A stretch of DNA of 23,198 nt from a virus. Taxonomy: Duplodnaviria > Heunggongvirae > Uroviricota > Caudoviricetes. The position numbers are program-made. The first letter of the stretch is position 1. The number at the start of each line of letters is the position of its first letter. Shown piece by piece: positions 1 through 3,000 of the stretch. The stretch spans positions 1 to 23,198 of the IMG/VR virus record IMGVR_UViG_648276650_000002; one strand, given 5' to 3'.

Positions 1-3000
1 GGGCCTATCAATGGGCCTAAAAGGTTCGGATTTAATTAGTTCTCTTCGGACTTCGCGGGACAAATTCAGGGCACAAAAAAGCCCGCAGGGCTTGCGCCGT
101 GCGGGCTCTTAGGACTTCATCGGATGACTCTGGTAATCACCGATGGAGAATTTTGGTGGAGCTGGCGGGAGTTGAACCCGTGTCCGAATAATGCTTAACC
201 TATTGAATATTAATGTTTTGTCTTTTTTGAAAGGCCTCAAGTGCATTTTACGTGCATATCGTGGTCCCTCTAACGTCCTGATTCCGTCCAACATTTTGAA
301 ATACTCACGACGCTACAGAGCTGCTGAAATGGCGGTTTTCCCGTCGTATTCAGCCAGGTATTTACCGTAATTGCGGAACAGCATTTCCGGCCCTTTATGC
401 CCCATCTGCCCGGCAAGCCAGAAAAGGTTTACGCCCTGGCTAATGTGTCTGGTGGCGAATGTGTGGCGGGTCTGGTACGGGTTACGGTATCGAACGCCAG
501 CTTTTTTGAGGGTTGGCACCCATGCTTTTTTTCGTATTGCGTCGGCGTTCGCCCAGGGCTCTCCCGTTTTAGGGTCGCTGAAAATAAACTCGCTTTTCAT
601 GAAAGTGAATTGTTTCTGCGCCTGCAGCGCGGCCAGCGCCTCGCTGTTTAATTCTACTTTACGGGTACCGGCTTTTGTTTTGGTGCCTTTCAGAACGCCA
701 ACAACACTCGCCGCCTGAACGTGAGCTGTTTTAGCGATATTGTCGAGATCAGGCCAGCGCAACGCACACAGCTCAGAGCTGCGTAAACCTGTATTGAATG
801 CGAAACGGAACAGGTTTTCCCATTCCGGATAACTGCAGCTCTGGTAAATGGCGCTGATTTCCGCTGGTGTGAACGGATCAACTTCGTAATCGTCACTATT
901 CGGGCTGCTGTCGATCACGTGGTACCGACTCGCGCTGACAAGGGTTACCGGGTTGATAGTCAGCAGGCCGTCTGTCACCGCTTCATCTATGGCGCTGCGC
1001 AGAAACGAGAGGTTATTCCTGATTGTTTTCAGCTTTGTTTTTCTGCTGGCGATCCAGTTTTTGAGGACCGCAGGGGTCAGTTCCGATACATGCATTTTGT
1101 GCAGCGCAGATAGCGCAGACAGGCACTTTTCATAACCGCCAATAGTGGACGGCGAAAGGTTGCGGTTCTGGCAGATTTTCAGATACTCGTCCAGGTAGGA
1201 CTTAATATTTTTGGTTTTCTTCACTACCCCGAACAGCTCCAGTTTTTTGGAGGTGGGGAAGTATTTCGCATAATCGAATGTGCCGCCGGCGATCTGATTC
1301 TGTATCTCCCCCAGCAGGCGCTCGGCATACTTCACGCCGCGCGCGTTTGCTTCCATTCTGGAAAGGGGCTCCCGGCAGAGAACCCCCTTGTAGGTGAATG
1401 TGATCACCAGGGTGTCGCCAGTTTTATGCTGGCGAATGGTTACTCCTCTTGGGAGAGATAATGATCCTTGTTCTTTCTTGCCCACTTTGAAACCTCCGTT
1501 AAGTCTATCCAGCGTTCTTTAACGCCATCGACTTTTAATACATGGACACCCTCTTTCCATAACCCCCTTTGTATCCGTTTGTTAACGGCTTCAACCGTTT
1601 CTCCGGCGTCCCGGCAGTAGGTTGAAAGTGGTACGCAATCAAGACTCATGACCGACCTCCCGCCCGAATGCCTGGGCATTTTCCAGTTCATTTGCCGCAT
1701 AGATAAGTGCGTTGTGGTGCGCTCTAAAACCGCCATCAAGTTCGCTGGCCGCTCTCTTGCGCAAAAAATCGATTGCAGCCTGATAGTCTTCACTGGCTGG
1801 CAGATCTCCCACGAGCATCAGCATGTTTTCCGGGTCGACAGGGATGGTGGTGAGCCCCAGCTGCTTGGCCTTCGTTGCCAGACGGGTCCAACGCTTAATA
1901 ATTTCTGAAACTGGCTTATTCATGGAGCGCCTCGCTACCTCACCAAAAATTTATATTCAATCAGCGCGCCGATAACGGTGGCCGCCAGTAGCAGGGAAAC
2001 AATGATGCTGAAAGTGAAGGGCTTCATCATTTCACCCCTGCTGGTTTGATGGCCTGCAGTGCATCAACCTCTTTAACGAATCGGTCATGCATCGCGTCCC
2101 ATTTCTCACACCATTTCTCCATTTCTCGCTTGCGCGCCAGGATACGACGCAGACGGCGAACACAACGCTGGTGGGCGGCCAGATACTCAGCCTTTGTTTC
2201 CCCGTCTCGCCATACCTCCATATCATCGCGATCAATACGCACTCGCGGGTGACGCTGTGGAAAACCTGAACGCTCAAAAGCCTCGGTGGTCATGAAGAAA
2301 GCCAGATAGCGGATCGCCGTATCGCGGGTGAAGCATTTTTTGACGCGGCCGTGACGGCGTGCCACGAACAACGGACCTGCCGGGGTATCATGTTGCTGTA
2401 ATGCCAGGTCGATTGCGCTGGCGATGCGTTTATCAGTCATTTTCTGTCCTTCAATTTTGAATAGCGTTCGTGGCTCATTACTTCCCAGCTCTGGCCGCCG
2501 TCGCGGGAAAGCAGGCGCCAGCGGAGATTCACACTCAGGCTCAGATAGCCAGTCTTGTGCATGCGGCGGGGGTGGATCCGCCCGGCGCGGTGCTGGCGCA
2601 GCACACGCACAGCCCTTTCGTGAACCCATTCAGGGATTCGGATCGCAGTAAGTGTCATGAATGCTCCTGCGTGATGGCCGCTGTTTTCTTAGCATGTTCG
2701 ACCAGCTCTGCCACAAGCTCATCAACCAGCAGCTTTCCGCTTTCAGTCAGGTATTCGCCATGACCATTCACATCAACTGCATTCCGGTACAAATCGCGGA
2801 TAGCTTTATCGCCTGCCACCGGGCCATGCTCACTTCGCGCCATTTTTTCAAACCGGCACAGAAGCCCGTCGAATAAAATCTCGGTCAGCTCCATGGTCGT
2901 TATTCCGCCTTTCGGAAGAGTAATAACAATGCAGGTTGTGCCTGTTTTACGTTGGTGGCGTAATAACGCTGCCTTTAAAATTCGGCGGCGGTAGGTTTCA

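Follow-up and report, generated by a model that had tools for sequence, protein, structure and literature searches.

The 23,198-nucleotide (nt) stretch of DNA analysed here as a whole and termed the window (positions 1 to 23,198 of IMG/VR virus record IMGVR_UViG_648276650_000002, Caudoviricetes) very probably contains a real protein-coding mini-gene of a lambdoid temperate prophage, the product of which would be a single membrane helix of about 30 amino acids (aa) with a start coupled, through an overlap, to the stop of the preceding gene. The open reading frame (ORF) concerned lies on the minus strand at 1935..2030 and, as first noted, comprises 31 codons from an ATG at 2030-2028, with a TAG stop at 1937-1935 and the product MMKPFTFSIIVSLLLAATVIGALIEYKFLVR; the ORF listing and a reading of the sequence both confirm that it exists in this form and supply the strand, on which the sequence-only reading that first pointed to it was silent. 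The minus-strand DNA over the ORF is CAGGGGTGAAATGATGAAG, or, with its flanks, ...CAGGGGTGAAATGATGAAGCCC... An ORF this short is uninformative by itself, since the first 6 kb of the window hold 101 ORFs of at least 20 aa. What lies beyond chance is that relatives keep its frame, its hydrophobicity, and its stop/start overlap.

A second ATG (2027-2025) opens a coding sequence of 30 aa at 1938..2027 (minus strand; MKPFTFSIIVSLLLAATVIGALIEYKFLVR), which is the form conserved in the family. Because the start used by relatives matches this second ATG, the product in the window is probably 30 aa long and begun at 2027. The upstream gene ends in a TGA at 2029-2027, the final base of which doubles as the first base of the second ATG; the ATGA overlap with the upstream stop that had been read from the sequence is indeed present at 2030-2027 (minus strand) and becomes TGATG when the second ATG is included.

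Conservation of the frame and selection on the protein

Relatives were retrieved by two routes. The neighbour-anchored route, with the downstream 94-aa protein as query, returned 71 viral contigs, and a small ORF sits immediately upstream in every locus with a full-length 94-aa match except for one small group, in which the peptide ORF lies some 540 nt upstream of the 94-aa gene with another gene between. Wherever the peptide ORF is found just upstream of the 94-aa gene, its frame is intact. The N-terminal halves are strongly diverged among these relatives—MKPFTFSIIVSLLLAAT, MKYFLLSMLFGLLLVAV, MKRLIVSFIFSVLLAAT, and MKQFINSILLALLLVSI are examples—and the C-terminal GALIEYKFL is nearly invariant; in the window, this motif (G20-A-L-I-E-Y-K-F-L28) occupies 1944..1970 on the minus strand and stands out in the per-codon table.

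The motif-anchored route, in which a degenerate pattern encoding GALIEYKF was scanned over viral contigs, gave 90 loci, 88 of which possess an ATG exactly 19 codons before G20 and an intact frame of 28-34 codons. One of the two exceptions is a chance match; in the other, the N-terminal half is swapped for a non-hydrophobic in-frame sequence, MKIQHQDYGAV, which is the start of a phrog_1001 gene, and this variant probably arose by a deletion that fused the phrog_1001 and peptide ORFs. One of the 88 intact copies has lost 1 nt from the T5 run and with it the last three residues, so that it ends in KFW. These two natural variants, the one ending in KFW and the other beginning MKIQHQDYGAV, are found at L024 ~2398-2484 and L046 ~2406-2492. 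Intact-frame relatives occur in Enterobacter, Citrobacter, Escherichia, and viral contigs. A loss of the frame among relatives, which the sequence-only reading had named as the observation that would count against a gene, was not seen: the frame is intact in all but two of the 90 loci, and purifying selection acts on the sense frame only.

Selection was assessed by parsimony on a neighbour-joining tree of 39 unique 84-nt cores. Inferred changes comprise 71 synonymous and 54 non-synonymous events, against 22 and 62 sites respectively, giving a ratio of non-synonymous to synonymous change (dN/dS) of 0.27 in the sense frame (binomial p ~5e-13). This is the lowest of the six frames, the other five yielding 0.53, 0.86, 0.86, 2.7, and 4.6. 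Constraint increases along the peptide, from a dN/dS of 0.42 over codons 2-14 to 0.13 over codons 15-28 and 0.05 over codons 20-28, where 16 synonymous and only 3 non-synonymous changes are inferred; with the codons of the retrieval motif left out, the ratio is 0.37. Variable sites at codon positions 1/2/3 number 18/12/23 (mean entropies 0.54/0.20/0.57) and inferred changes 40/17/68. Taken from sequence comparison, these patterns indicate protein-level selection on the peptide ORF.

The same data bear on whether the ORF is a gene at all. A chance frame that happens to cover a conserved element of DNA or RNA (a linker for recombination, say, or a structured regulatory RNA) would fit the high nucleotide conservation of the 3′ half and the mosaic joints that flank the ORF, and short ORFs are abundant by chance. 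The conservation of the 3′ half is unexceptional, however, since conservation is just as high at the start of the downstream gene, and a non-coding element does not account for the concentration of variation at third codon positions or for a sense frame with by far the lowest dN/dS of the six. Rfam gives no match over the peptide gene, and the local fold energy is no better than that of shuffled sequences (z = -0.66). The ribosome-binding site is predicted to pair with the coding region, with a probability of 0.4-0.99 in 14 of 16 contexts but close to zero in the remaining two; a selected hairpin that hides the ribosome-binding site was considered and rejected, because synonymous recodings of the same peptide pair equally well, and the pairing is thus read as a by-product of pyrimidine-rich hydrophobic codons. 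A non-genic origin is therefore considered extremely unlikely.

Start/stop overlap and mosaic joints

Of 88 loci, 83 show the overlap between the upstream stop and the conserved ATG, which recurs after upstream genes of five unrelated families; it takes the form of ATGA in 65 of these loci and of TGATG with an extra ATG, the window type, in 18. At least eight downstream gene families follow the peptide gene across the 88 loci. A Shine-Dalgarno-like element precedes the conserved ATG by 5-6 nt in all 16 representative contexts. In the window, this element is GGGGTG (2033..2038, minus strand), located within the last codons of the upstream gene at a distance of 5 nt from the second ATG versus 2 nt from the first, with a duplex energy of -6.0 kcal/mol against the anti-Shine-Dalgarno sequence; most other contexts carry GGAGG, with duplex energies of -9.3 to -9.9. 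A translation signal, the lack of which had also been named as telling against the gene, is therefore present in all contexts examined, and the stop/start overlap is present in 83 of 88 loci. Since the upstream stop overlaps the ATG, it is proposed that ribosomes would probably reach the peptide start by termination-reinitiation.

The two ends of the peptide follow its neighbours: its N-terminal type varies with the upstream gene, and its C-terminal tail (VR, VK, IGF, MGF, MNY, MNF, MDFGS, or TNFGG) with the downstream gene. In nearly all contexts, 29 nt separate the Lys codon from the next start regardless of which gene comes next, and the peptide stop shifts within this fixed-length junction to give products of 30, 31, 33, or 34 aa. 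In the window, the junction ends in an 11-nt spacer (CGAGGCGCTCC; 1924..1934, minus strand), in which GAGG at 1930-1933 is the ribosome-binding site for the gene that follows. Mosaic joints coincide exactly with the edges of the peptide gene; from this, and from the tracking of neighbours and the fixed 29-nt junction, it follows that the peptide gene is a unit that has been retained, with recombination joints as its borders.

Such an arrangement raises the question of whether translation itself is the function. A relay, handing ribosomes on between modules so as to avoid polarity and supply the following start, and leaving a functionless peptide as its by-product, would explain the stop/start overlap, the fixed 29 nt between the Lys codon and the next start, and the position of the ORF exactly at the mosaic joints. 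A relay, however, needs nothing more than an open frame, whereas here the amino acids are constrained (dN/dS of 0.13 in the C-terminal half), nine codons are nearly free of replacements despite many synonymous changes, and the divergent half stays hydrophobic. This explanation is accordingly regarded as very unlikely.

The junction also suggested a programmed -1 frameshift on the AAATTTTTG run, which would fuse the helix to the downstream protein and yield a membrane-tethered isoform. The downstream gene does lie in the -1 frame in nearly all junction variants, and this frame is open from the T-run to the downstream ATG. The A UUU UUG sequence does not, however, conform to the canonical X XXY YYZ slippery pattern; 3 of 46 junction variants (AAATTTATG, AAATTTCTG) have an interrupted T-run; a stretch of some nine open codons is expected by chance; and the downstream proteins belong to unrelated families. 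As the junction is homologous and of fixed length in all contexts, the constant -1 offset is explained without recoding, and the frameshift fusion, barely credible on this evidence, was rejected.

The predicted membrane helix and its candidate modes of action

The sequence-only reading had taken the product to be a single predicted transmembrane helix, and this is upheld by both hydropathy and structure prediction. The Kyte-Doolittle mean over residues 3-23 of the 30-aa form (1959..2021, minus strand) lies between 2.27 and 2.84 across all 39 unique variants, and AlphaFold2 predicts one helix spanning residues 3-29 with a mean predicted local distance difference test (pLDDT) score of 94.7. Replacement patterns agree: 41 of the 47 replacements inferred in codons 3-23 stay hydrophobic or small, and T occupies the second position of 69% of helix codons. 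Alignment A3 shows K2 and E24/K26 to be invariant, and the charge balance weakly favours an orientation with the N terminus in and the C terminus out.

A working model can be proposed on this basis. The peptide gene would belong to a leftward early operon under a cI-like repressor, such that the peptide would be made upon induction or infection and not in the quiescent lysogen, and it would then insert into the inner membrane. The N-terminal two thirds may serve as a generic hydrophobic anchor, followed by a conserved C-terminal part (A16-x-x-x-G20-A-L-I-E-Y-K-F-L) and a short variable tail; the conserved half would pack against a host or phage membrane protein and alter its activity. Modulation of another membrane protein through a specific helix-helix contact is favoured tentatively, and by analogy, because constraint sits on A16-x-x-x-G20 and the interfacial LIEYKF, the remainder being merely hydrophobic; it falls somewhat short of probable. 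More doubtful is the bolder proposal that the family constitutes a widespread phage effector docking on one host inner-membrane protein (in division, transport, or envelope synthesis, for example) during induction. Equally doubtful is its corollary, under which the peptide would be a 30-residue module, 'protein antibiotic'-like or acting in exclusion, that has been moved whole by recombination between unrelated neighbours.

Gross membrane damage is held to be a less likely action than modulation of a membrane protein. A host-killing peptide, akin to a holin or a type I toxin, would oligomerise, dissipate the membrane potential, and shut the host down early. TisB, Hok, and Ibs are small membrane toxins, and the present peptide resembles such toxins in its size, its extreme hydrophobicity, and its short polar C terminus; in addition, the small-residue spacing of A16-x-x-x-G20 could allow self-association, and expression solely upon loss of the repressor would suit a toxic product. 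Nevertheless, the peptide matches none of the Pfam families for Hok/Gef, Ldr, TisB, or Ibs, and the features expected of a type I toxin—a stand-alone mRNA, an antisense partner, a toxin-family match—were not found. A single promoter-like site, TTGCCA-16 nt-AATAAT, does occur at 1875-1902 on the plus strand, directed antisense across the peptide gene, but it was rejected as a candidate since its -35 element is lost in the other clade; an antisense RNA is unlikely for this reason, and there is no Rfam match to one. Furthermore, the strongest constraint falls on the interfacial LIEYKF (dN/dS 0.05) rather than on overall hydrophobicity, which suggests a specific partner, and a peptide that poisoned the membrane early would also impair replication of the phage itself. 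A membrane-damaging toxin is thus judged unlikely.

A quite improbable role is that of a superinfection-exclusion or defence factor, which would keep the DNA of other phages from crossing the inner membrane, be it that of the lysogen or of a cell in lytic growth. Temperate phages do encode small to medium-sized membrane exclusion proteins, and P22 SieA, HK97 gp15, and T4 Imm are known examples of such membrane exclusion factors; the predicted membrane product of a temperate phage, portable as a unit across mosaic contexts, would fit among them. On the other hand, no promoter of its own was detected for the peptide gene, which overlaps the preceding gene in 83 of 88 loci; the operon is expected to be off in the lysogen; and PADLOC returned nothing for the peptide or its neighbours.

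Modulation through helix-helix contact has parallels among known small membrane proteins. The phiX174 E protein targets MraY, and the levivirus M lysis peptide targets MurJ; both are short phage membrane helices that act through contact with a host membrane protein. They differ from the present peptide in being the sole lysis genes of small lytic phages, whereas a tailed temperate phage is expected to have lysis genes of its own; the peptide gene, moreover, lies in a putative early operon beside xis-int, and no homology was found. The small inner-membrane regulators MgtS, AcrZ, PmrR, KdpF, and MgrB bind larger membrane proteins (PMC12648545), and are alike in having some 30-50 residues, one helix, and no catalytic domain, and in often being missed by annotation. 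Those regulators, however, belong to chromosomal stress regulons, whereas the peptide gene sits in a putative prophage early operon and lacks a Pfam or NCBIfam match. Type I toxins (Hok/Gef, TisB, Ibs, Ldr, and ShoB), some of which are prophage-borne (PMC12648545), share a short, very hydrophobic single helix and enter the inner membrane, but they are stand-alone and antisense-controlled, whereas the peptide gene is embedded in a putative operon, overlaps the preceding stop, and has no evident antisense partner. A further likeness is to Entero67K, a catalogue of intergenic small ORFs under purifying selection in Enterobacteriaceae that assigns no function (PMC11188072): its ORFs resemble the peptide gene in their range of 15-70 codons, their location in stretches left unannotated by RefSeq, their hydrophobicity, the purifying selection acting on them, and the bacterial family in which they are found.

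Database searches with the peptide yielded no functional match. Pfam and NCBIfam gave nothing at E <= 0.1 and, at E <= 1, just composition-driven matches such as PsbX; the best PHROGs match, to a family of unknown function, is not significant (E-value 0.014); and a sequence search of the PDB returned no meaningful match. The literature search found general reviews and catalogues of small membrane proteins and nothing on this peptide family.

Several considerations weigh against the reading of the ORF as a coupled membrane-peptide gene that modulates a partner. Translation of the peptide and its insertion into the membrane are predictions from sequence and from modelling, and what is observed of translational coupling is the geometry of the overlap, the coupling itself being deduced from it. 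The GGGGTG element of the window is weaker than the corresponding elements of most relatives. The parsimony-based dN/dS values ignore transition/transversion bias and recombination and come from related sequences; the selection tests are approximate, yet the signal is large and specific to the sense frame. The family also appears shallow in evolutionary depth, because a phmmer search of 1.84 billion representatives yields one true relative cluster, along with a spurious transmembrane match in a 3604-aa protein, and all members in alignment A3 are close, with at least 53% identity to the window peptide. The positions of the promoter and terminator of the left operon are putative, and the proposed mode of action is argued from analogy, since homology to characterised small membrane proteins was not found.

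Putative operon setting, annotation and distribution

On the minus strand, the gene order runs from the cI-like gene through several genes of unknown function, the HNH-like gene, a 79-aa gene, the ParE_like gene, a 138-aa gene, the peptide gene, and a 94-aa gene to xis and int. The cI-like repressor gene (4889-5578) encodes HTH_3 and Peptidase_S24 domains, and a cro-like gene diverges from it at 5672. TTTAGCA/TGCTAAA half-sites are concentrated around the repressor gene, with six of the seven copies in the window in or beside two clusters that flank it: one at 4733-4774, after a hairpin downstream of cI, and the other at 5597-5652 in the cI/cro intergenic region, with an additional TTTAGCA copy at 5749-5755 within the cro-like ORF. 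These clusters are probably the left and right operators. A putative leftward early promoter/operator region lies at 4725..4880 (minus strand), comprising the terminator-like hairpin (~4845-4880) and then the TTTAGCA pair (4733-4774). From here, the same-strand gene chain runs unbroken to xis-int, the excisionase (1440-1652) and the tyrosine integrase (313-1485) forming its distal end on the minus strand. The early-left operon in which the sequence-only reading had placed the peptide gene is a reasonable description, because the half-site layout matches that expected of left and right operators; the unbroken chain is likewise consistent with it. Among related loci, 62 of 74 have a same-strand ParE_like gene upstream of the peptide gene, and 48 of 52 have a same-strand integrase at most 2.5 kb downstream.

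The immediate neighbours, all on the minus strand, provide no functional lead: with the exception of the ParE_like, HNH-endonuclease-like, xis, and int genes, they belong to PHROGs of unknown function. The gene whose stop overlaps the peptide start (phrog_1886) is listed as an ORF at 2027..2629, but its true start is the ATG at 2443, giving a 138-aa product (2027..2443) of the same length as in phage LMessi. Downstream of the peptide gene lies the 94-aa gene (phrog_36586; 1639..1923), with its ATG at 1923. The ParE_like gene (2437-2658; 73 aa) scores 73.5 bits against PF24732, for which the cut-off is 24.4; such a gene directly precedes the peptide gene in 14 of 88 loci, the two overlapping at ATGA. 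Together with the preceding 79-aa gene of unknown function (phrog_1737; 2655-2894), the ParE_like gene may form a toxin-antitoxin-like pair. Gaps of unusual length (3202-3337 and 3998-4066) border the HNH-endonuclease-like gene (3338-3997; 219 aa; phrog_953, E 6e-80), and promoter-like sites occur at 4002-3974 and 3909-3882; the gene has the appearance of a mobile or moron-type insertion in the left operon.

In Pantoea stewartii (NZ_CP046558.1), the 30-aa peptide is absent after the phrog_1886 gene, and its place in the locus (L008 2905-3093) is taken by a different, 62-aa, apparently two-helix hydrophobic ORF, MKLYLRIVIALVIFASVYGLLVPSLISMKD..., which may be a positional analogue of it.

The peptide gene had been described as unannotated, and this is true of RefSeq but not of GenBank. 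In RefSeq annotation by the Prokaryotic Genome Annotation Pipeline (PGAP), the position is left empty in E. coli UMNK88 and in two further E. coli genomes with relatives. GenBank, in contrast, holds the exact peptide as hypothetical protein EOV56524.1 of E. coli KTE64, and phage LMessi carries an annotated 31-aa homologue, XNS37525.1. Gene calls for the exact peptide exist on 312 contigs; variants of it, each found on hundreds of contigs, have entered the databases from Enterobacter, Citrobacter, Pseudocitrobacter, and E. coli under the label of hypothetical or uncharacterised protein. Within E. coli, the gene is rare, with 18 of 5426 complete genomes matching a 121-nt probe. Among phage records, tblastn with the window variant as query matched phage LMessi alone, and with the MKYFLL variant as query it matched none.

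Small hydrophobic ORFs under selection are abundant in Enterobacteriaceae and in phages (PMC11188072, PMC12648545, PMC11323111), and the peptide family is an uncharacterised instance of this common type of phage gene, with members already in the databases as hypothetical proteins. Its interest lies in the fact that a 30-codon frame skipped by RefSeq is among the most stably kept pieces of a highly mosaic prophage region, and that the gene is present on thousands of contigs from clinically relevant Enterobacteriaceae. If a target were found, the peptide could reveal a new route by which temperate phages manipulate the host envelope on induction, and could provide a very small scaffold for membrane-protein inhibition; its present value lies mainly in correcting annotation and in supplying a candidate for small-protein screens.

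Elsewhere in the window, the plus strand at 11351-11659 and 11878-12070 carries a phage tRNA cluster (Met, Thr, Gly) and, after it, an Rfam match to the small RNA STnc100 (71.7 bits). Part of the cluster is an ARAGORN call at 11430-11503 that has an abnormal two-base 'anticodon' and is not reported by the Rfam tRNA model.

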